Below are positions 3,727 through 40,132 of a DNA stretch of 64,000 nucleotides, one piece after another. The notes under the pieces were generated by a model, which was given only the letters and a program-made list of their open reading frames with translations, was not told the DNA's origin and ran no database searches. The stretch lies in sequence record ON528731; one strand, given 5' to 3'. The position numbers and the translations under genes were made by a program. Source of the stretch: Shigella phage ESh21. The stretch's first letter is position 1, and every line of letters begins with the position of its first letter.

Positions 3727-4110
3727 ATGAAAAAATACTATATGCCAAAGTTTATCAAGAAAGAAAACTTTCGCGATGCTCTGGAAAATTCCATGAATGA
3801 GCAATTCAAAGGCAAAATAATTGTTGTACACGCATACAATTTTAAGTATGATGTAAACGGTAACAAGATAAACCACTACACCGTTACAATGTTAGATGAT
3901 ACACTCTCAGGAGAAAAAGCCATCATCAATGCACTGGCTGCACGTGGTAAAACGTTAATCCGTTGTGATAAACGCCGCTATCAGGGTGGCACTTATGGTT
4001 ATGAGGATGCAATCTATCATCTTGCTAATATGGGTTACAATGTCGAAAAAGCTGGCGTATCTCAAATGATTGGTAGTGATGGGTATGTAACAGATTTCAA
4101 AATTAACTAA
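3727..4110 (+). CDS. Hypothetical early protein
   Basis: Conserved leader upstream. Confidence 0.55.
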   Translation: MKKYYMPKFIKKENFRDALENSMNEQFKGKIIVVHAYNFKYDVNGNKINHYTVTMLDDTLSGEKAIINALAARGKTLIRCDKRRYQGGTYGYEDAIYHLANMGYNVEKAGVSQMIGSDGYVTDFKIN

Positions 4111-4118
4111 TAAAGTGC

Positions 4119-4172
4119 TTTACATGGGGTTTATGAGTTGCTAGTATAAGCCCCAGATAAAGAATTTTATCA
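4119..4172 (+). promoter_or_regulatory. Promoter-embedded stem-loop cassette plus palindrome
   Basis: TTTACA - 17 bp - TAGTAT overlapping hairpin GGGGTTTAT/ATAAGCCCC; palindrome GATAAAGAATTTTATC. Confidence 0.55.
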
Positions 4173-4197
4173 CTAACCTAAACTGGAGATTCTAAAA

Positions 4198-4710
4198 ATG
4201 AAATCAGTCGAAAGCACCTTTGAAGTTCAAAAAGAAAAATTTACTATCATCTTTGAAGCAATGAATGTTTATGAGCCTTCCCATTGTGTGGATAACTGGC
4301 AATTCACTGATGAGCATAAAGGAGGAGTTACAATCAAAGTTAAAAACTCAGAACGTAACGGCTACAAATATGCAATTCCTATGCACTATGCGCTTTCACA
4401 GCTTGCCAGTGATTACGCAAAACAGGGAAGGGATAACCCATCATTAGCCGCTTACAAGAGCTTACAAGATGAACTAGAAAGGGATTTAGGGGCTAATAGC
4501 TACATTCTATACGCCTCAGTAGTTGACGCTGAAGGCAACACGGTTTTAAATAGTTTTTCCCTTGCGTATGGTTTTGATTGGTGCTATCTTGACGGGGAAG
4601 ATTTAGATTCACGCTTAAAAGAGGAAGTAAGCAATTCAGGTGCTGAAGAGGAAGTTTTAGAGCGCTTGGAAGATTTAAAAGATAGTGTGATGAATATCTT
4701 TAATATCTAA
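4198..4710 (+). CDS. Hypothetical early protein
   Basis: Conserved leader upstream. Confidence 0.55.
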   Translation: MKSVESTFEVQKEKFTIIFEAMNVYEPSHCVDNWQFTDEHKGGVTIKVKNSERNGYKYAIPMHYALSQLASDYAKQGRDNPSLAAYKSLQDELERDLGANSYILYASVVDAEGNTVLNSFSLAYGFDWCYLDGEDLDSRLKEEVSNSGAEEEVLERLEDLKDSVMNIFNI

Positions 4711-4716
4711 AAGTAC

Positions 4717-4769
4717 TTTACATGGGGGTTATCAAGTTGCTAAGATAGCCCCAGATAAAGAGCTTTACC
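4717..4769 (+). promoter_or_regulatory. Promoter-embedded stem-loop cassette plus imperfect palindrome
   Basis: TTTACA, hairpin, GATAAAGAGCTTTACC. Confidence 0.45.
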
Positions 4770-4795
4770 AACAATCCTAAACTGGAGAATCTAAA

Positions 4796-5086
4796 ATGAA
4801 AATTCCTGCTAATGTACGCTCAAAGTTAAGCCAATTACTACAAAACATTTCTTTTGTAGAATCTCATAGACGTTCACAGGATGTTATAGAGTGGTATCAT
4901 GGGAAGATTAACAAGAAAGAAGTTTTAATCTGTATTTGGAACTTTCAAAAAGAACATGGCAAGCCATTGCTTCAGGTTGACATTTATGATAATACTAGCA
5001 AATCAGCAGTAAAATCAAAAGCTGATATGATTGATTCATATGAAATTAGTCACACTGGTAGATTATCACACGTTGGGAAGGTTTAA
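4796..5086 (+). CDS. Hypothetical early protein
   Basis: Conserved leader upstream. Confidence 0.5.
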   Translation: MKIPANVRSKLSQLLQNISFVESHRRSQDVIEWYHGKINKKEVLICIWNFQKEHGKPLLQVDIYDNTSKSAVKSKADMIDSYEISHTGRLSHVGKV

Positions 5087-5087
5087 A

Positions 5088-5414
5088 ATGTTACTTTCTG
5101 GTATCGCAATTCTGATTTCAATTGTGGCGCTATATAAAGCTTATCAAGCCTCAGACTATGCAGATAAGGCTATCACAAGGAAAGTTAAAATAAACCTTGT
5201 AAGTAGCTTCTTAGAGCGTTTAAGCGTGGAACAATTACAACGTTTAGAGATGGGATTCAGGTTTAAGGCAGACACTTATCAAATCAGTGATGTTTTATCC
5301 GGTAACTTTGAGCTTGTTAATGATTACAATGCGTTACTAAATGCTATTCAAGCTACTGATTTAAAAGAATATTATCCGGTTATTGCACAAGAAATTAATA
5401 AACGCAAAAAATAG
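5088..5414 (+). CDS. Hypothetical membrane protein (N-terminal TM helix)
   Basis: Start moved to ATG 5088 with GGAAGG SD; the longer ORF from 5031 overlaps the upstream gene. Confidence 0.45.
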   Translation: MLLSGIAILISIVALYKAYQASDYADKAITRKVKINLVSSFLERLSVEQLQRLEMGFRFKADTYQISDVLSGNFELVNDYNALLNAIQATDLKEYYPVIAQEINKRKK

Positions 5415-5497
5415 CTTGCAAAGGCAAATCAAAACAAGTAAAGTACTCATCAACGGGGTAAGCAAGCCCCTAACAATCCTAAACTGGAGAATCTAAG

Positions 5498-5770
5498 ATG
5501 TATACAACTAATAATGGCAGAACTTTAAATGTAACTTTAAAGCACTATATAGACGGTGTATTAAACTTTGAAGACTTGCAAGCAGAGCAGCACTTGTTAG
5601 CTTGGCAAGTAGCAGGATTACAAAAAACCGCCACCGGATATGGGAAGAAAATCCCTACATCTTGGAAAGTTCGATACCTTGGAAAGTTACGCAGAATTTA
5701 TCAAGATGTTTACAGTAATAGTGGTGTAAGTTACATTATTGTTAGCGGTAAAAAGTTACATCTTGCTTAA
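5498..5770 (+). CDS. Hypothetical early protein
   Basis: TTGCAA-17-TAAAGT promoter and conserved leader upstream. Confidence 0.5.
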   Translation: MYTTNNGRTLNVTLKHYIDGVLNFEDLQAEQHLLAWQVAGLQKTATGYGKKIPTSWKVRYLGKLRRIYQDVYSNSGVSYIIVSGKKLHLA

Positions 5771-8766: not shown

Positions 8767-8837
8767 TAGTCTTGACAAGGGGCATAAAAGCCCCTACTTT
8801 AAGACTCTAAAACAATCCTAAACTGGAGATTCAAAAA

Positions 8838-9089
8838 ATGGCTACTATCCGCGCAACTGTAAACACTTTTGGTTTTAACGTGTTAGATGTTAAGTTTGAT
8901 ATGGTAGGTACTGGTGATGCTTTTGGAATGGTTGAAATGTGCTTAAAGGCAACTATTCAGGACTATAAACCAACTGAAAACTTCTGGAAAGAAGTCAAGC
9001 AGGAAGTCTTGAAAGATGGTGTGACGTCTTACTATTGGGGTGATTCTCTTATCACGCTTTACCATCAAAAATTTGGTTATAATGACTAA
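8838..9089 (+). CDS. Hypothetical early protein
   Basis: Conserved leader upstream. Confidence 0.5.
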   Translation: MATIRATVNTFGFNVLDVKFDMVGTGDAFGMVEMCLKATIQDYKPTENFWKEVKQEVLKDGVTSYYWGDSLITLYHQKFGYND

Positions 9090-9129
9090 CAAGACGCCGC
9101 AACGGGGCAAATAGCCCCAGACACCTTTC

Positions 9130-9153
9130 AAGCCCCTTAAATGGGGCTTTTTA
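9130..9153 (+). terminator. Rho-independent terminator ending the early plus-strand array
   Basis: AGCCCC-TTAAAT-GGGGCT followed by TTTTT. Confidence 0.7.
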
Positions 9154-9540
9154 ACGTCTATACAATCTCTTTCTAGACATTTAGAGTAATAACTCTATAG
9201 CTTACTCTATAACCTCTTATCAAATCAACTTAAATATAAGCCCATAACCCGAAAGGGAAGGGCAACCATTAAAACGCTCTATAACGCTCTATAACAGCCT
9301 TATCAACCTAACTTAAGCAATCATATTAACCCACTCTAAAAATCCCTTTATAGAGCTTCCTAGAGCCTTAAAAGAATCTTATAAGGGTGTAAGCTTTATC
9401 ATCTCGTTAGTCTCTTGTGAATATCTAAACAGGGCTGCAAAGTCACTTAAAAGTTACGTAAAAAGAGCTATAAAGTATCGTAAACACTAGCCCCCTTAAC
9501 ATTTCTTTAACAAAATCTTAACAATCCCTACATAGTTATG

Positions 9541-10026
9541 CTTGTTAGCAACTTGTTAGCACCTTGTTAAATCTCTGTTAAGACTACGTTACAACCTTGT
9601 TAGGCTCTTTGAAGTCCCTATATAAGCCCCTGTAAAGGGCTATAAAGAGCTATACAGGTAATTGGGCTATAGATACTAGTAAGAACCTTAGAAGAGGCTA
9701 CATAGAGCTATACAGGGCTTTTAAGAGGGCTGTTTAGAGAATCACTGAGAGGGATAGGGAACTATAAGAGAAGAGAAGTTGTGTTTGTAAACAATCACTG
9801 TGACCATGTTAATAAATGGTTAAACATGTTAAGAACTTAATAGACACTTGTTAATTATCTTAACAAAATAACTTTTAAATTTAACATGTTAGGGACTTGT
9901 TAGTAATTTGTTAAACCCTTGTAAGAACTGTTAAACTCTTGTTACATCCTTGTTAGAACTGTTAAGGGATTGTTAAGAACTATGGAGACTTGTTAGAGAC
10001 TTGTTAGAGTTGTAAAGAAATTGTTA
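9541..10026. repeat. Array of more than 20 YTTGTTAR repeats, the 9887-10026 run phased at about 10.5 bp
   Basis: TGTTA starts at 9887, 9898, 9909, 9920, 9929, 9940, 9951, 9960, 9971, 9991, 10002, 10011, 10022. Confidence 0.7.
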
Positions 10027-10279
10027 ATGATATTTTAAGATTTTGCAAAGGGGATGTTACAGGGCTGTTAAGGGCTACCAAGCAGATATACACCCTTTGT
10101 AGATATTTTTCAGATACTCCCAAGAACCTAAAAAGTGACCTACCTAGTCTATTTTATAAAAATTTTATAGAACTGAATAACTATCTATACACTATCTTCT
10201 ATAAAACAGGTAATAACAGGCTTATAAGATATCTTGTTAGTAACGTGTTAGACCTTGTAGGATAAGCCTTTACAGGGAA

Positions 10280-10560
10280 TACCTGTTTAGTGCTATATAA
10301 CAGTCTATATAGAGGCTTAGTAATCCCTAGTGAACCATCTATAGAGGGTATCATCCTTAACATAGAGATTAAGATGGATATAGGGGCTTCTAAGGGGCTA
10401 TGGAGAAGCTAGGAAGGTGATTGTATAGGTGTGGAAGAGGGCTTGTTAGAGAGCTTTATAGAGGGCTATTTAGAAGGTGCTATATAGTTTCACTAGATAG
10501 GGACTAAGAGGCTATATAGATACTATATAATACTATATAGAGAGTATGCTTAGATAGGTT
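10280..10560. repeat. Cluster of palindromic GCTATATAG-type repeats
   Basis: Copies near 10283, 10297, 10349, 10455, 10479, 10511, 10522, 10532; related GCTATAAAG copies at 9461-9720. Confidence 0.6.
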
Positions 10561-10663
10561 GTTGAAGAGGGTATTGATATTTTATCACATATCATGGTGA
10601 CCAAAGATGAACGGAGTGAATCCAAATTTTATAAGAACTATAAATTTCGTAAATTTTACTCAA

Positions 10664-10711
10664 TAAAAAGCCCCTATGAGATAGATTCTATCGAATCCAT
10701 ATTAAGGGGCT
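10664..10711 (-). terminator. Rho-independent terminator for the minus-strand operon
   Basis: Minus-strand hairpin AGCCCCT...AGGGGCT followed by T-run. Confidence 0.55.
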
Positions 10712-10720
10712 ATGTAGTTC

Positions 10721-11392
10721 TTAGCAAAGGTTCTCTATAACAGCCTGAATAGCTGGAATAGTCGTGTGAAAGAAGTGAGTGTCTCCGTTATGTGATTCTC
10801 GTATCTGTAACATGATAGCGTGACCCTTGATAGGGTAGCATTGAATGTGATAACGATTCCCGTTAAACACTGAACCAAACCCTGTACAGAAACTTTCCAA
10901 GTCAGCTTTAGAAAGAAACTCTTCTTTCCCTGTGATTTTTATACAGACACCTCTATTAACTCGTGAAGGGTTTATATCTTCTGCAAAGAGCATCTGTTGA
11001 CCACCTAAAGAGGTCATAGAGATTTCTTTACGGTTCTGCTGCTTAACATACATCTCAAGCTTCTTCAAAGTCTCTTCATAGAACGGATAATATTTATTCA
11101 CAAAGATACCTTCAAGTGGCTCTTTACCTGAGTCTTCTCGTTCCATCTTAAGTCGATTAACAAGTAATTCTAAAGACCACTTCTCACTTTCATCAAGATA
11201 TGTATTGATATCATCTAGACTCAGTACCAGATACTTTCTTTCAAGTTCAAACTTTTTCATCTCTATCAAATCCTTAAAACATTTCTTAGTAATTGCTTCC
11301 CATTCTTCGGAGTTCTTCCGCTTCCTCTTCAGATGGGGAACCATATCTGTTAAGTTCTTCCAACTCTTCTTCAGTAGGTGTCCCATAATCAC
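10721..11392 (-). CDS. Hypothetical protein
   Basis: ORF in track. Confidence 0.5.
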   Translation of the reverse strand: MIMGHLLKKSWKNLTDMVPHLKRKRKNSEEWEAITKKCFKDLIEMKKFELERKYLVLSLDDINTYLDESEKWSLELLVNRLKMEREDSGKEPLEGIFVNKYYPFYEETLKKLEMYVKQQNRKEISMTSLGGQQMLFAEDINPSRVNRGVCIKITGKEEFLSKADLESFCTGFGSVFNGNRYHIQCYPIKGHAIMLQIRESHNGDTHFFHTTIPAIQAVIENLC

Positions 11393-16928: not shown

Positions 16929-17813
16929 TTAACCTCCTACTACGTTAACCACTACAGTAGCTGGGTTTGAAGTAACACTTCCACCTGCTCCAGTAACTAC
17001 ACATACATAACTTCCTGCATCACCAGCAGTCGTAGTATTCTCTTTGGTGTAGGTTGCTGCTGTAGCACCAGAGATTTCTACATTATCTTTCTTCCACTGG
17101 TAACCTGTAGCTCCGGTTGCAACAATATCAAGAGTCAGTGTGTCACCTTCAGTGATTTCTTGGTTTGCTGGCTGTTTAGTGATTACTGGAAGTGCATTCA
17201 CAGTAACTGTTGCAGCATCTGAAGTGACAGTTGCACCACCATCACCAGTAACTACACAGGTGTAAGACCCAGCATCAGCAGGGGTTACGTTTGTTTTAGT
17301 GTATGTTGCAGAAGTTGCACCAGAGATGTTAGAAGCACCCTTCTTCCACTGGTAACCAGTTGCATTTGTAGCAACAACTGTCAAGGTTAGAGTACCACCC
17401 TCATTAACAGTTTGGTTAGTTGGCTGCGTGGTGATAGCTGGTGGCACAACTGCATCAATCAGTTTAGCATTCAGCATTGAGAAAGGTTTAACCCTTGCAA
17501 GCCATTCACAGTAAATAGTGTCAACATCTTTACCGTTGATGATTGCATACTGCAAATCCATGAAGAAGTCAGCAGTTCTCATTTGAGCACCTACAGAGTA
17601 TAGTAGTTCTTCAGAGAATGGAACTGTGTAGCTTGGGGTGTAGTTTAAATCGGTAACCTCAGCAATGTCTGACTCAGGCCACGGAGAGCTATATGTCAGT
17701 GGTAGCACAGCTTCTTGATACGTTCTGAAGTCGTATCTCTTACCAGCTTTAACATTCGCAATAAAAACCTTTACGAACTCTTTAAAATCTGGATATGTTT
17801 TTGCTTTAATCAT
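16929..17813 (-). CDS. Protein with two tandem Ig-like domains
   Basis: Two ~80-aa repeats (TLTLxVVATxATGYQWKK...AGSYxCVVTGxGG); N-terminal domain paralogous to 17810..18178. Confidence 0.6.
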   Translation of the reverse strand: MIKAKTYPDFKEFVKVFIANVKAGKRYDFRTYQEAVLPLTYSSPWPESDIAEVTDLNYTPSYTVPFSEELLYSVGAQMRTADFFMDLQYAIINGKDVDTIYCEWLARVKPFSMLNAKLIDAVVPPAITTQPTNQTVNEGGTLTLTVVATNATGYQWKKGASNISGATSATYTKTNVTPADAGSYTCVVTGDGGATVTSDAATVTVNALPVITKQPANQEITEGDTLTLDIVATGATGYQWKKDNVEISGATAATYTKENTTTAGDAGSYVCVVTGAGGSVTSNPATVVVNVVGG

Positions 17814-18178
17814 TTATTAGCCTCTAATCTTGCGTTTAGTCTGAAATAACCTTTGTGTTGAGGTGATACATCACCAACTACAACACCTTCAATCTTATAA
17901 CCCTTTCCCATTACATACTGAATGTCCATTAAGAATGTCCCTAGACCAACAATATGAAACATCGGATAAAGTAACTCTTCAGAATCTGGTAGGTCAGTTT
18001 TTGGGATGTATTTAACGGTAGCTGTAGTTGGGTTGATATCCTTCTCAGGCCATTTACTATCACGCCATGTTAAGGGTGTCGGAAGTACATCATCAAGATT
18101 ATACCTTTCACCTTCTTGAACACTTTGGACATAAGATTGTAGGAAGCAATAAAAGTCTTTTCTACTCTTTGCCTTCAT
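17810..18178 (-). CDS. Hypothetical protein, paralog of N-terminal domain of 16929..17813
   Basis: Shared pattern W..S.WPE.DI...SEELLY...FxMDxQY. Confidence 0.5.
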   Translation of the reverse strand: MKAKSRKDFYCFLQSYVQSVQEGERYNLDDVLPTPLTWRDSKWPEKDINPTTATVKYIPKTDLPDSEELLYPMFHIVGLGTFLMDIQYVMGKGYKIEGVVVGDVSPQHKGYFRLNARLEANK

Positions 18179-25079: not shown

Positions 25080-25110
25080 CTTCTAAGGGTTCTTACGAGA
25101 GTCCTTAAAT

Positions 25111-25187
25111 GTGGCCTTATCATAAATGGATAATGACCCATGCTGTGAACATGGTCTATACGGGTTCGATTCCCGTAGGTCACCCCA
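25111..25187 (+). tRNA. tRNA-His (anticodon GUG)
   Basis: Anticodon stem CCATG/CATGG, loop CTGTGAA, discriminator C; no encoded G-1. Confidence 0.65.
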
Positions 25188-25193
25188 ATTCAA

Positions 25194-25270
25194 TAGCTCA
25201 ATTAGCTTATATGGTTAAAGCGCGTGTCTGAAAAACATGAGAACAGGGTTCAAATCCCGATGGGCTACCA
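25194..25270 (+). tRNA. tRNA-Phe (anticodon GAA)
   Basis: Loop CTGAAAA; T-stem weak; 3' boundary uncertain. Confidence 0.5.
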
Positions 25271-25285
25271 ATTTATAGGTGCATA

Positions 25286-26020
25286 ATGAAAGAGATGACA
25301 GGACAAGGTAAAGAGATTTTCAGTCTCCTTAAATCCGGTAACGGGTTCTCTAACCCTCTTATTACTGGTGCAGCAGTTCTTGGTGGTACAGTTGCTGCTT
25401 CTCAGTCATTAGTAACTTCTATTGGTTCTGTATCAGACCCAGCTACCCAGCAAATTCTTATTGCTGCTGGCTTGACAACTGCCTTACTAAGCAGCTTTAC
25501 AACAAGCCTTGGTAGCACCACTTCAACGACAACTACTTTAACTGACTATGGACAGAAGTCTGTAGATGAGTTTTCACAACGTATGCAAGTAGCTAAAGGT
25601 TACTCTAACGTTATGGGAGCAGCAGGTGAACAAGTCGGTTGTACACCGTTTAGTGGAATCATGGGAGTTGCTACAGAGTACGGTAACAAAGCTATGGATT
25701 TGATTAATACATCCATAGACGCTGTAAATGGCGTTCTAAGCGATTTACAAGATGCGATTGATAAAGGACTAGACACTATCTCTGAACTCGCTACACAAGC
25801 TGTTACAGCGATTAATGAGGGTATGGCAAAGATTACTGCCTACGCTAATGAAGTGGCTCAGATGATTGCAGATGAAGCAGCCCTGATTGCTGACTACCTT
25901 AAAACGAATATTAACGGTTTTCTTGCTAATGTCTTACCAGATTGGTTTGATGATGCTTGTAAAACTGGTGTGATTGATACAATCGCAACTCCAGAGATGA
26001 AAGATGCTCTAAACAAATAA
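25286..26020 (+). CDS. Hypothetical protein with Ala/Gly/Ser/Thr-rich N-terminal half
   Basis: 244-aa ORF between tRNAs. Confidence 0.55.
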   Translation: MKEMTGQGKEIFSLLKSGNGFSNPLITGAAVLGGTVAASQSLVTSIGSVSDPATQQILIAAGLTTALLSSFTTSLGSTTSTTTTLTDYGQKSVDEFSQRMQVAKGYSNVMGAAGEQVGCTPFSGIMGVATEYGNKAMDLINTSIDAVNGVLSDLQDAIDKGLDTISELATQAVTAINEGMAKITAYANEVAQMIADEAALIADYLKTNINGFLANVLPDWFDDACKTGVIDTIATPEMKDALNK

Positions 26021-26023
26021 TTT

Positions 26024-26116
26024 GGAAGATTAACCCTAAAAGGTAAGGGAGCAGTTTGCTAAACTGCCAGTAACCGAGAAATCGGCGTACCAGTTCAAGT
26101 CTGGTATCTTCCTCCA
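26024..26116 (+). tRNA. tRNA-Ser (anticodon GCU), long variable arm
   Basis: Acceptor GGAAGAT/ATCTTCC perfect, anticodon stem GCAGT/ACTGC, 93 nt. Confidence 0.7.
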
Positions 26117-26123
26117 AATTAAT

Positions 26124-26200
26124 GTGTCGGTGGCAGAAATGGATTATGCGCCTGTCTGCAAAACAGGTATATAAGGGTTCAAGTCCCTTCCGATACTCCA
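26124..26200 (+). tRNA. tRNA-Cys (anticodon GCA)
   Basis: Anticodon stem CCTGT/ACAGG, loop CTGCAAA, T-arm AAGGG-TTCAAGT-CCCTT. Confidence 0.65.
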
Positions 26201-26420: not shown

Positions 26421-26627
26421 ATGAACGAGACTAATGTTTACAAAGAACTATATGAAACTCAGAAACAGGCTCAAATGCTTCAAGCAACTGTAATGGCTGT
26501 GGCTGAACGTTTAATTGTTGCAACTGGTATTAACCCACAAGAAGCAACGATGGATAAACTTCTTAATTTAGTAGATGAAAAGTTTGGTGTAGAACCTAAA
26601 CAGGAATCTGAAGAAGTTTCTGAATAA
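26421..26627 (+). CDS. Small acidic protein upstream of large terminase (possible packaging accessory)
   Basis: ORF in track; position only. Confidence 0.4.
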   Translation: MNETNVYKELYETQKQAQMLQATVMAVAERLIVATGINPQEATMDKLLNLVDEKFGVEPKQESEEVSE

Positions 26628-26648
26628 TTCTATTTGCAGAGGTGCTTA

Positions 26649-28250
26649 ATGGACTTAAATGTTATTAAGCAGAAGCGAGTGGAAGATGTAAGGAAAGTCC
26701 TAGCAGGTGAGTTGGGGCTTTCTGAAGAAGTAAAAGATATTATCAAATCCTTTGGTAAAGACCCCTCTAAATTCCTTCCAACTCAAATTCTGACTTTATT
26801 AAGATATACCCCAGACCAAGTAAGACTCATCTTTAAATTGATGACTGACAAGAACTATGTAGCTCCACAGCCTGGCTCTCAAGAGGTATTCTTGAATACC
26901 AATGCTGACTTGGTGTTATATGGTGGTGCTGCTGGTGCTGGTAAGACTGCTGCCCTTTTAATGGACTCTTTGAGATTCATTGATGACCCTAACTATAACG
27001 CTGTATATTTCCGTCGAAATACTACACAGTTACAAGGTGGTTTATGGCCAGCAGCTAAAAAGCTATTTGGTAAGTTTGGTGGAATCCCACACGAACAGAA
27101 AATGACTATTACGTTCCCTTCAGGAGCGACTATTAAGTTTACTTATTTGGAACTTGAAAAACACTCAGAAGGTCACCAAGGTATCGAATACTCAGCTATT
27201 TACTTCGACGAAGGTACACACTTCTCGGCTTCACAGATTTCATATCTTCAGACACGTTTGCGTTCTGGTGCTGAAGGTGACTCATATATGAAGATTTCCA
27301 TGAACCCAGATAGAGACCACTTTATTTACGATTGGGTAGAACCATTCCTAGATGAAGAAGGTTATCCAGACCCGTCTAAATGCGGTAGGATTCGTTGGTA
27401 TGTTATGAGTGATGGTGTAATGGTTTCTGATTGGGACAAGAATAAGATTCTTGAAATGTTCCCTCTAGAGATTCCTCAAACATATACCTTTATTTCTGGT
27501 ACGATTGATGACAACCCAATTCTTGATTTCTTAGAACCTAAGTATCGTGGTAAATTGGAAAATAACACACCAGTTAACGTTGCTCGTCTTCGTTTTGGTA
27601 ACTGGAAAGCTCGTGCAGAAGGTTCAAACTATTGGCAAAGACAATGGTGTGAGATTGTTGATAGTGTTCCAGCAGACGTATTTGATGTTCGTGCTTGGGA
27701 CTTAGCAGCAACATTACCCTCAGAAGTTAACCCTAATCCTGACTGGACAGCAGGTGTGAAAATGGGTAAATCTAAAAAAGATGGTTGCTATTATGTAATT
27801 AACGTAGTAAGATTTAGAGATAGACCTTCTGGAGTTGAAACACAAATTAATATGACTGCTGAAGGTGATGGTAAACGTACTGGTATTTTTATCCCACAAG
27901 ACCCAGGCGCTGCTGGTAAATCCTACGCAACATCTCTTATTAGAAAACTTGCTGAGAAAGGCTATAGAGCAAGAGCTAAACCTACCAATAAAGATAAAGT
28001 TACCCGTTTTGCGGGTTTCTCTGCTGCTTCAGAAGCTGGTCTTGTTAAAATTGTTAGAGGCTCTTGGAATGAAGCTTATTTCCAAGAACTAGAAGGTTTT
28101 TGTGGTGATGGTCGTACTAAGGATGACCAAGTGGATGCTACCAGTGATGCTTTCAACAGTCTTAATGAAGTTAAACTATTCAAGCCACCTTCAATGGGTA
28201 CTCATACAGATATTGTAAGAAGTAATCCATACGAAGGGCTGAGATTCTAA
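26649..28250 (+). CDS. terL: Terminase large subunit
   Basis: Walker A-like GGAAGAGKT; ~530 aa; followed by portal; start set to ATG 26649 with GAGG SD. Confidence 0.8.
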   Translation: MDLNVIKQKRVEDVRKVLAGELGLSEEVKDIIKSFGKDPSKFLPTQILTLLRYTPDQVRLIFKLMTDKNYVAPQPGSQEVFLNTNADLVLYGGAAGAGKTAALLMDSLRFIDDPNYNAVYFRRNTTQLQGGLWPAAKKLFGKFGGIPHEQKMTITFPSGATIKFTYLELEKHSEGHQGIEYSAIYFDEGTHFSASQISYLQTRLRSGAEGDSYMKISMNPDRDHFIYDWVEPFLDEEGYPDPSKCGRIRWYVMSDGVMVSDWDKNKILEMFPLEIPQTYTFISGTIDDNPILDFLEPKYRGKLENNTPVNVARLRFGNWKARAEGSNYWQRQWCEIVDSVPADVFDVRAWDLAATLPSEVNPNPDWTAGVKMGKSKKDGCYYVINVVRFRDRPSGVETQINMTAEGDGKRTGIFIPQDPGAAGKSYATSLIRKLAEKGYRARAKPTNKDKVTRFAGFSAASEAGLVKIVRGSWNEAYFQELEGFCGDGRTKDDQVDATSDAFNSLNEVKLFKPPSMGTHTDIVRSNPYEGLRF

Positions 28251-37898: not shown

Positions 37899-40132
37899 TG
37901 GCACAGTATACAGTTGATAGTTTTATTGTGGAACTTGGATTCAGTGAAAAGGTTGTAAAAGGTTTACAGAGAGTTGAAAAGATGGCTATGCAATCTGCTC
38001 AACGCATCGAAAGAAACATTAACAAAGCCTTTGACGTGAAGCCTAATAAAAGTTCTCAAGAAGCTCTAAACAGACTTGTTAAAAACGCTCAGACTGCTTC
38101 GGGCAGAATCAATAAATCCCTAAACAACGCTCTCAATTTAGATTCCCAAGGTGTTAAATCTCTACGTAAATTAGAGACACAAGGGAAGAAGACAGCTAAA
38201 GAAATTAATAAGGCTCTCAGACAAGCTATGAACGTTGACGGTAAAGTTAATATTCGTGGTGGTGCTGGTAGAGGTCGTGGAAATACCGTTCCCCCAGTGG
38301 GTGGAGGTTCACCAAGAGTTAGGCCTGATATTGCTCAGAGACAAATGGAAAGGATGTTTAATAACAACTTCTACTCTGGCCTTACTCGTCGTCTTGAAAC
38401 TATTGGTGGACAGGGTAACCAAATGGCTGCTTCTTTCAGAGGCAACTTGCAAGGAATCTATAACAAGTATAAAGGGAGTGGTAAGGTTGGTGAATATGAG
38501 ATGGAAGTTAAAAAACTCATTGACACAACCAAACGTTGGGTTATTGCAGAAAATGCTAGAATCAAGGCAGTCAAAGAATCAGCTTGGCTACAGGATAGAG
38601 CAAACTCTTCACTAAGACAGTTAATTGGTGGTTTTGTTTCCGCCTATGCTTTGTTAGAATTAGCTCAGAAGACAATTGATGCAGGTGTTAAAAGACAGTC
38701 TGCACAGTTAGCCTCAACAGCTATCTTTGGAGCAGATACACAACAAGCTAGAATGTTCGCTGCTACGTTCGCTCACCAGATTGGTCAGAACTACACAGAC
38801 ACTATGAAGCAGTACTCAAACTTCGCTGCTGGTGCTCAACCTGCACTTGGTTTTGAAGGTACTCAGGAGTTCTATAAGAATGCTGCAATGTTCTCTCGTA
38901 TTAGAGGGGCATCTGATGAAGACTTGAAAGGTATCATGGTTGCTTTCCAGCAAATGGCATCTAAGGGTAAAGTTCAGGCTGAAGAACTCCGTGGTCAGTT
39001 AGGTGACCGTTTGGCAGGTGCTGTTCAGTTGTTCTCTGATGCTATCGGTAAGACTCCACAAGAACTTGATAAGTTGATGCAGGATGGTAAGCTACTTGCT
39101 AAAGACGTTCTTCCAAAAGTCTCTGAGAAGATGAGAGAATTGGTTGACGCAGCAGGTGGTATGAATGCTGTATCTAAGCAGACTGCTACATCAATGGGTC
39201 AAGCAAAAGCTATGTGGGATAACACCTTAGTGGCTCTCTTCAACAACTCTAGTGATGGTATCTCACAGTTGTCTAACTCCGTTGCAATGTTCTTGCAAGG
39301 TTCCCTTGGGACTACTGAAGCTCTTGGTACTGGTATTGACTACCTGTTAAAAGGTGCTAGTAACCTTCTGGACTTCATCACAGATATCATGTATCGAATC
39401 TCTGGACTGTACTACCTAGCAATGGGATATTACAGTGATTTAGGTGCAAGTCAACAGAAACTTATCAAGGACTCTGCTGAGTTAGTTGCAACGTTTACTG
39501 CTATCGGTGTTGCAATTGCAACTATCACGAAAGTTGCTAAAATCTTCGGTGGTACTGTAGCATTTGTCAAGAGTATTTTTGAAGAAGGTATTTTGGCTAA
39601 GATTGCTCAAAAGCTTGGTCTGACAACAGCAGCAGAGACAGTAGCTACAACGGCTGGTGTAACAGGAACTAGAATGGCTCTTGGTGTAGGTGGTTCTGCA
39701 CTTATGCTTTCAAGTTCGGCTGACCCAAATGCTGGGAAGAGATTTAGTGATGTTAATACACCAAACCCTTTCAACGAAGCTATTGCTGGGGTTACCAATG
39801 CTAAACGTCCGATGTTCTTTGACCAAAATGGACAGTTGAGGTTCGCACAATATACCACTGACACTTCTGGAAATATTCAGAGAGTGGATAATGGATTGTC
39901 AAATTGGGATATCATCATGAACAACCTGTCTGAGTCTTTAAACAACTTTGCAACTAAGTTTAACCAGACACCAATGATGATGAGTCCATCTGGATTCCCA
40001 TTACAAACTAAGCAGACGCTTAATGTTTCCTTTAATCTGGATGGTAAGCAGATTGCTAATAAAATGGTGGATATCACTAATAAGAGTCAGGAAGATATTC
40101 TGTTAAGTTCTAGCTACCCAGAGGATGAATAA
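37898..40132 (+). CDS. Tail tape measure protein
   Basis: 744-aa protein after chaperone pair; long Ala/Gly-rich segments. Confidence 0.75.

Follow-up and report, generated by a model that had tools for sequence, protein, structure and literature searches.

A non-coding region of about 1.5 kb in the Shigella phage ESh21 sequence (ON528731; the 64,000-nucleotide stretch analysed here is called the window) is very probably the terminal region of a linear chromosome with a short exact direct terminal repeat (DTR), whose ends were joined by the assembler with a single copy of the repeat retained. This reading is drawn from sequence comparison, and the ends of this phage's chromosome, at positions 9490 and 10079, are assigned through homology to relatives. 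The DTR is already documented in Felix O1-like phages and is not a new kind of element; modest additions to it, described below, are its phased repeat units, an inverted element at its boundaries and its conserved flanks. We infer that the region likely functions as cis-acting DNA, serving end recognition, nicking and duplication of the DTR during packaging.

The region stands out by its lack of genes. In the ORF listing of the window, positions 9132-10720 carry no ORF of at least 60 codons on either strand, and these 1589 bp are the longest gap lacking such an ORF or a tRNA in the 64 kb scanned, the sole gap of similar size (22386-23946) being a tRNA cluster. Between 9132 and 10003 there are no ORFs of at least 30 aa. 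The first-pass annotation, which described 1.5 kb without genes between two terminators and considered this length unusual for a compact phage genome, was thus right on both counts, and the two terminators that bound the stretch are real hairpins followed by a U run; together with a hairpin upstream of the first, they are:

9104-9118, + strand: hairpin GGGGC-AAATA-GCCCC, just past the stop codon that closes the final + strand gene; the upstream member of the two stem-loops in the fold, unchanged in 12 of 12 aligned genomes
9130-9153, + strand: intrinsic terminator of the + strand operon, AAGCCCC-TTAAAT-GGGGCTT and a T run
10664-10711, - strand: intrinsic terminator closing the - strand operon; a GATTCGATAGAATC hairpin is nested in its loop

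The + strand terminator and its upstream hairpin (9098-9160) fold at -26.5 kcal/mol (z -4.5) and the - strand terminator at -21.4 kcal/mol (z -4.5), with no shuffle as good in either case. The former is carried as a terminator in the annotations of Michonne and AYO145A, and the latter in those of Michonne, wV8 and AYO145A. A simple consensus scanner detected neither. The proteins encoded on both sides (83, 175, 223 and 161 aa) match only PHROG families of unknown function.

The evidence for chromosome ends comes from relatives. The region matches 254 phage records, all of them Felix O1-like myoviruses (Ounavirinae). Its best match is Shigella phage ESh22 (92%), and the window is Mooglevirus-like; in the same search the remaining Mooglevirus phages reach about 84%, and Suspvirus and Felixounavirus 77-82%. 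Both ends were compared in the records of three relatives deposited by independent laboratories, each of which begins exactly at the homologue of window position 9490 and contains the matching sequence twice, as an exact repeat shared by prefix and suffix:

vB_CbrM_HP1 (Mooglevirus, the same genus): 570 bp, annotated as a repeat_region
vB_EcoM_D4: 581 bp
vB_EcoM-Ro111lw: 613 bp

All three repeats start with GCCCCCTTAACAT and end with GTTAAGGGCTACC, continuing into AAGCAGATATACA. In the window, GCCCCCTTAACAT is found at 9490 and the junction of GTTAAGGGCTACC with AAGCAGATATACA at 10079/10080, each boundary sequence being present in single copy; both are the same across the laboratories' records and unchanged in 12 of 12 genomes. 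A query with 9490-10079 showed that the records of SPJ41, H12, SeKF_63, EcSzw_1, MET-P1-301 and Seyj1-1 also begin or end at these boundaries. Since the relatives' records start and end at the homologues of 9490 and 10079, the intervening sequence is assigned as the single collapsed copy of the repeat:

9490-10079, unstranded: direct terminal repeat, 590 bp, single copy, placed by boundary homology to HP1, D4 and Ro111lw

Identical sequence at both virion ends, the mark of a DTR, is present in the homologous records (570, 581, 613 and 444 bp), and the boundary sequences of the relatives are those of sequence-defined, non-permuted ends. A headful pac site of the P1/P22 type was considered and rejected, the relatives' deposited ends being exact repeats with both boundaries fixed. 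Collapse of the DTR and joining of the ends would also explain the apparent convergent junction: the region does appear to be functional and non-coding, as the first-pass annotation implied, but the junction that it described is in all probability the join of two virion ends around the DTR copy at 9490-10079.

Published work on related phages agrees with this assignment. A 608-bp DTR was determined in UAB_Phi87 by Bal31 digestion and run-off sequencing (PMC4837284), PhageTerm gave DTRs of 613 bp for Ro111lw (PMC6454146) and 581 bp for Pr103Blw (PMC8303462), and a Felix O1-like DTR cluster has been reported (PMC4837284). In ESh21, the large terminase subunit TerL is encoded at 26634-28250 (Terminase_6N/6C, phrog_979). 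The homologous gap in Felix O1 measures 1622 bp and lies between ORF23 and ORF24; the genome paper describes two convergent junctions, including this one, and infers short terminal repeats from genome size (PMC3185647). The ESh21 repeat shares with the DTRs of UAB_Phi87, Ro111lw, Pr103Blw, vB_CbrM_HP1 and vB_EamM-M7 homologous DNA (74-93% over the DTR), the same boundary sequences, the same site, flanked by the ORF23 and ORF24 homologues of Felix O1, and a similar length (570-613 bp, or 444 bp in Erwinia phage M7). It differs in being internal and single, because the sequence was opened elsewhere. The database records of UAB_Phi87 and Erwinia phage FIfi106 are likewise not opened at the terminus. 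The part of the Felix O1-like phage literature that we covered gives the repeat length, and no description of the phased units, boundary elements or conserved flanks was found in it.

Within the joined ends, two families of short motifs are arranged around the boundaries as follows:

9154-9489, unstranded: unique non-coding left flank, just inside the virion right end; no ORF of at least 30 aa
9240-9263, unstranded: small hairpin GCCC-ATAA-CCC-GAAA-GGG-AA-GGGC in the left flank; conserved; -11.6 kcal/mol, z -3.0
9488-9501, + strand: left boundary element TAGCCCCCTTAACA, with the left chromosome end starting at G9490; unchanged in 12 genomes and unique in the window
9497-9524, - strand: three TGTTA(A) units in reverse, read as TAACA at 9497, 9508 and 9519, 11 nt apart and adjoining the left end; cores invariant
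9541-9603, + strand: first forward TTGTTA/TGTTA array of 11-nt units; unit number differs among relatives, whose alignment shows 11- or 22-nt indels
9610-9740, + strand: second-family cluster in the middle of the DTR, with GCTATAAAG, GCTATACAG, GGGCTTTTAAG and GGGCTGTTTAG in units of 10-12 nt
9805-10075, + strand: second forward TGTTA(A/G) array of 16 cores, spaced mostly 11 or 20-22 nt apart; cores conserved, also in Erwinia phages, and spacers variable
10066-10077, - strand: right boundary element, reading TAGCCCTTAACA on this strand, with the right chromosome end at C10079; the junction of TGTTAAGGGCTACC with AAGCAGATATACA is invariant
10080-10663, unstranded: unique non-coding right flank, just inside the virion left end; no ORF shared across genera
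10083-10117, + strand: three AGATA(T/C) units at 10084, 10101 and 10112, directly past the cut site; AAGCAGATATACA is invariant, present also in Erwinia phages and unique in the window
10292-10545, + strand: second family in forward orientation, TATAGAG at 10308, 10340, 10457 and 10536
10436-10487, + strand: 12-nt array of AGAGGGCTNTNT
10512-10541, + strand: 10-nt array of CTATATAGATA, 2.8 copies

Both families far exceed chance expectation, here taken from 1000 dinucleotide-preserving shuffles of the region. TGTTA[AG] occurs 28 times, compared with 2.96 expected and a shuffle maximum of 9; for CTATA[ATC]AG and its complement the count is 10 (expected 0.57 +/- 0.75, highest shuffle 5), and for TATAGAG/CTCTATA it is 9 (expected 0.78, highest shuffle 4). 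Overall, the TGTTA(A/G) and GCTATATAG/TATAGAG motifs are enriched 10-60x, and such clusters are absent elsewhere in the 64 kb. CTATATAG has four copies in the region and one in the other 62 kb, and CTTGTTAG nine and three, respectively. The second repeat family that had been noticed at first reading is therefore borne out by both shuffle counts and copy numbers, albeit with two corrections: the motif pair had been called palindromic, which applies to CTATATAG but not to GCTATAAAG, and the tandem CGCTCTATAA duplication is real but lies at 9275-9294 (9273-9295 in TRF), about 8 nt to the left of the 9283-9302 given previously.

The TTGTTA array falls within the DTR. Its forward TGTTA cores (n = 21, at 9543-9598 and 9807-10066) are separated by exactly 11 nt in 10 of 20 gaps and by 20-22 nt in a further 6. 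The second family resides mostly in the two unique flanks, with an opposite orientation on each side: CTCTATA, which is TATAGAG reversed, occurs in the left flank at 9193, 9205, 9277 and 9287, together with a tandem AACGCTCTAT (2.3 copies, 9273-9295), and TATAGAG occurs in the right flank, so that the flank copies face each other across the DTR. The right boundary element is an inverted copy of the left one (9493-9512 against 10055-10074, 80% identity), and the PhageTerm-derived cuts are slightly asymmetric about this inverted element, being offset by +2 at the left boundary and by -2 at the right one. The counterpart of the left-flank hairpin in Ro111lw has different letters, with pairing still possible (GCC..CCCC-AGAA-GGGG..GGC).

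An alignment of 12 genomes from three genera, scored as identity to the window per 50-nt bin, gives 0.75-0.95 over most bins of the non-coding region, compared with 0.45-0.74 in the genes on either side; the 223-aa neighbouring protein is only about 50% identical to its Felixounavirus homologues. Conservation peaks at 9188-9388 (0.88-0.95 across the three genera) and at both boundaries (0.91), and the right flank holds 0.69-0.85 per bin up to 10637, after which identity drops to 0.59. A mere variable spacer is ruled out, as the region outscores the flanking genes. Inside the DTR, the TGTTA(A/G) cores are invariant, the 5-6-nt spacers vary and indels come in steps of 11 or 22 nt; invariant cores with variable spacers are the pattern expected of repeated protein-binding sites, which these units may accordingly represent. 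The strong conservation seen at 9188-9388 could reflect a role in replication, or an RNA, rather than packaging.

The layout extends to a fourth genus, the Erwinia phages of Kolesnikvirus. The region has no megablast-level similarity in phiEa21-4; in both phiEa21-4 and M7 a syntenic gap of about 1.2 kb repeats the TAACA/TGTTAAG arrangement and the boundary blocks, with TAACA preceding TGTTAAG units at 11-nt spacing in phiEa21-4. The corresponding block of phiEa21-4 runs from GATTTTGCAAAGG to AAGCAGATATACA, the homologue of the left boundary is TTAGCCACTTTTACAT, and its left flank is rich in CTTCTAA in place of CTCTATA. The M7 record has an exact terminal repeat of 444 bp, compared with about 439 bp predicted from homology, its ends lie 2-3 nt off the prediction, and TTAG starts both 5' ends. 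From the syntenic gap, the boundary blocks and the M7 repeat, it follows that the arrangement of the termini has been maintained throughout the subfamily and that the flank motif has drifted.

Among other phages, the concatemer junction of T7 and T3, with T7 examined as a control, offers a parallel in design only. It too has a short exact DTR with fixed ends (160 bp in T7) and a gene-free junction of about 1.2 kb (T7 1-925 plus 39538-39937, minus one repeat copy), and a short motif recurs in the repeat, with phased arrays in both non-coding flanks. In T7, ACCTAAAG is present three times inside the 160-bp repeat and phased CCTAAAG arrays occupy both flanks, with 13-nt arrays at 175-341 and further units to the left of the right repeat. 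The two junctions share no sequence similarity, however, and the units are 13 nt apart in T7 and 11 nt apart in ESh21; T7 has early promoters in its left flank and genes directed inward from that end, in contrast to ESh21, where both neighbouring operons run outward; and the ESh21 terminase belongs to the Terminase_6 type, the phage being a myovirus whose portal is Mu-like. Multiple copies of a short element also flank the cut site on both sides at pac of P1, with its seven TGATC(A/G) hexamers, and at cosB of lambda, with R1-R3. P1, however, packages by the headful mechanism with permuted ends and lambda has cohesive ends, unlike the fixed ends and exact repeat of the ESh21 type.

In DTR phages, ends are generated from concatemers by staggered nicks followed by 3' extension (PMC5557969), and the concatemers hold one repeat copy per junction (PMC5557969, PMC6454146). 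Applied to ESh21, the virion chromosome would run from a left end at 9490 to a right end at 10079, with the 590-bp repeat on each, and the replicating concatemer would carry a single repeat copy at each junction. A packaging nuclease would recognise the inverted TAGCCC(CC)TTAACA at each boundary, nicking 5' of G9490 on the top strand and, on the bottom strand, 5' of the base that pairs with C10079; with the element inverted, one nuclease specificity would suffice to nick opposite strands at both edges. On each strand nicked under this model, CCCTTAACA lies within a few bases downstream. Strand-displacing extension of the 3' ends would then duplicate the repeat, as in T7-type phages. We infer that the phased TGTTA(A/G) units in the repeat and TATAGAG/CTATAWAG in the flanks are binding sites for one or more phage proteins, which, once bound, would mark the junction for terminase and may help the ends to pair. 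The operon on the + strand heads for the right end and that on the - strand for the left end; as both run outward and stop at terminators, the terminators would insulate the terminal DNA and keep it free of read-through.

The analysis linked neither a small terminase subunit nor any other DNA-binding protein to the repeats. A 68-aa ORF at 26421-26627, just upstream of TerL, was examined as a small terminase candidate and set aside, as it has no Pfam or PDB match and bears an acidic tail. We nevertheless put forward, tentatively and as a proposal that we hold to be somewhat doubtful, that the roughly 28 phased TGTTA(A/G) units and the reversed TATAGAG copies of the flanks form the docking array of an end-recognition protein, which would wrap or coat about 1.5 kb and might be the small terminase of Ounavirinae (for which no gene is annotated), with 9188-9388 as the true site of packaging initiation. 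A bolder variant of the same proposal has the arrays engaging the RNA polymerase of the host on the DNA end as it enters, because TGTTAA reads TTAACA on the other strand and thereby matches five of the six bases of a -35 hexamer.

The features that suggest binding sites also invite other explanations, of which an iteron-type replication origin in or coinciding with the region, in which an initiator would occupy the TGTTA(A/G) units and the AT-rich blocks at 10150-10170 and 9860-9885 would melt, is the least improbable, though we consider it unlikely. Short phased direct repeats with conserved cores are numerous, invariant AT-rich blocks lie close by, the motif clusters are found nowhere else in the 64 kb, and the tandem direct repeats, whose 11-nt period is close to one helical turn, resemble iteron arrays and parC-type centromeres. 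The cumulative GC skew also turns at about 10 kb; this turn, however, falls where the coding strand changes, and a similar one accompanies each such change in the window; a skew that follows the coding strand is uninformative as an origin marker. Cores of 5-7 nt at 11-nt spacing are shorter than the 17-22-nt iterons of lambda and plasmid origins, the region contains no DnaA-box or IHF consensus, the neighbouring genes encode small proteins of unknown function with no recognisable initiator or partition gene among them, and the phage is virulent. An origin would in any case be compatible with a DTR and could coexist with it, rather than replace it.

Still less probable is the suggestion, made at first reading, that the region encodes ncRNAs or holds clustered phage promoters. 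The region is highly conserved yet lacks coding capacity, which would suit this reading, but no Rfam match was obtained over 8800-11000 at E<=1, and in an RNAalifold prediction for the most conserved block (9176-9400) none of the 41 predicted pairs was compensatory, with a covariation term of 0.03, a test of low power at about 90% identity. Also in its favour, two sigma-70-like sites are present in 12 of 12 genomes: TTAACA-18-CATAGT on the + strand, with its -10 at 9531, and GTAACA-17-TAAAAT on the - strand, with its -10 at 10037. Yet no gene lies downstream of any candidate, any TGTTAA unit automatically creates a -35-like hexamer, the helical spacing at which the motifs overlap is at odds with separate promoters, and the T4-type late promoter TATAAATA is absent from the whole window. 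The two conserved sites probably arise incidentally, because TGTTAA reads TTAACA on the opposite strand, and with the Rfam, RNAalifold and T4 late-promoter searches all empty, the suggestion finds no support. Small genes missed by the 60-codon cut-off are a highly improbable explanation, even though small CDSs are annotated here in ESh22 (four), Michonne (one) and D4 (one), and a 54-aa ATG ORF at 10199-10363 (- strand) is kept in four Mooglevirus-like genomes. No ORF of at least 35 aa is common to the genera, with none in wV8 and a single one in Felix O1, of 35 aa and elsewhere, so that the CDS calls in some records are not credible; conservation, moreover, tracks the repeat cores and not codon positions. 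A protein-coding gene in the region, which would have overturned the original description, was accordingly rejected.

The terminal region with a collapsed DTR remains the preferred reading, and it has practical consequences. With ends at 9490 and 10079, the map is corrected and the genome length increases by 590 bp. As in most deposited relatives, the ESh21 genome is opened at an arbitrary point and the repeat is collapsed, and spurious small genes are sometimes called inside it. To our knowledge, T7 and T3 are the only phages for which end cutting and duplication are understood in detail. The alignment provides a footprint of cis-acting signals in phages widely used for biocontrol and typing, consisting of an inverted boundary element at both cuts, TGTTAAG units across four genera and flanks that outscore genes in conservation, and it may guide work on how ends are cut and duplicated in myoviruses with short exact repeats.

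The genes flanking the terminal region (window 8838-9089 and 10721-11392) diverge faster than non-coding DNA. In comparisons with Felixounavirus, the 223-aa and 83-aa flanking proteins share about 50% and 44-60% identity with their homologues, respectively, against 77-80% for the non-coding terminal region, the latter being nucleotide identity and the former two protein identity. The flanking proteins fall only into PHROG families of unknown function.

Several records of related phages carry small coding sequences in the homologous region.

Small CDS annotated in homologous terminal regions (coordinates within each record; source, record annotation)
Michonne, 4967-5167: small CDS
ESh22, 4059-5550: small CDS
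D4, 1033-1170: small CDS
phiEa21-4, 17660-17881: small CDS gp32
M7, 636-845: small CDS gp001 and gp002

Because these CDS are not conserved across genera and overlap the repeat arrays, they are probably over-annotations. Another database entry, the 147-kb record of Staphylococcus phage SA1 (GU169904.1), contains at 135462-137053 a 79%-identical copy of the enterobacterial Felix O1-like terminal region, and the presence of such a region in a Staphylococcus phage record suggests that the assembly is chimeric or contaminated.

Two sigma-70-like sites, TTAACA-18-CATAGT on the plus strand (window 9507-9536) and GTAACA-17-TAAAAT on the minus strand (10060-10032), are kept in all 12 aligned Ounavirinae genomes and might be bound by the host RNA polymerase. 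The opposite strand of each TGTTAA unit, one form of the phased repeat inside the DTR, reads TTAACA, which matches the -35 hexamer at five of six positions. The T4-type late promoter core TATAAATA has no occurrence in window 1-64000, where 3.8 would be expected at 38% G+C. Elsewhere in the window there is a divergent junction at about 19 kb; downstream of it, 25 tRNA genes are clustered on the plus strand at 21465-26200.

The 14-nt palindrome GATTCGATAGAATC, which occurs only once in the window (10684-10697), forms a nested hairpin within the loop of the minus-strand terminator; the same hairpin lies within the plus-strand terminator in pinkbiff and in the left flank in heid and phiSUSP1, and, among the relatives compared, the homologous terminator of Felixounavirus does not contain it. 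Judging from these positions, the hairpin behaves like a small mobile insert. A different small hairpin, GCCC..CCC-GAAA-GGG..GGGC, is located at window 9240-9263, within the best-conserved flank. The homologous sequence of Ro111lw is altered and can still pair (GCC..CCCC-AGAA-GGGG..GGC), which hints that the stem as such matters.
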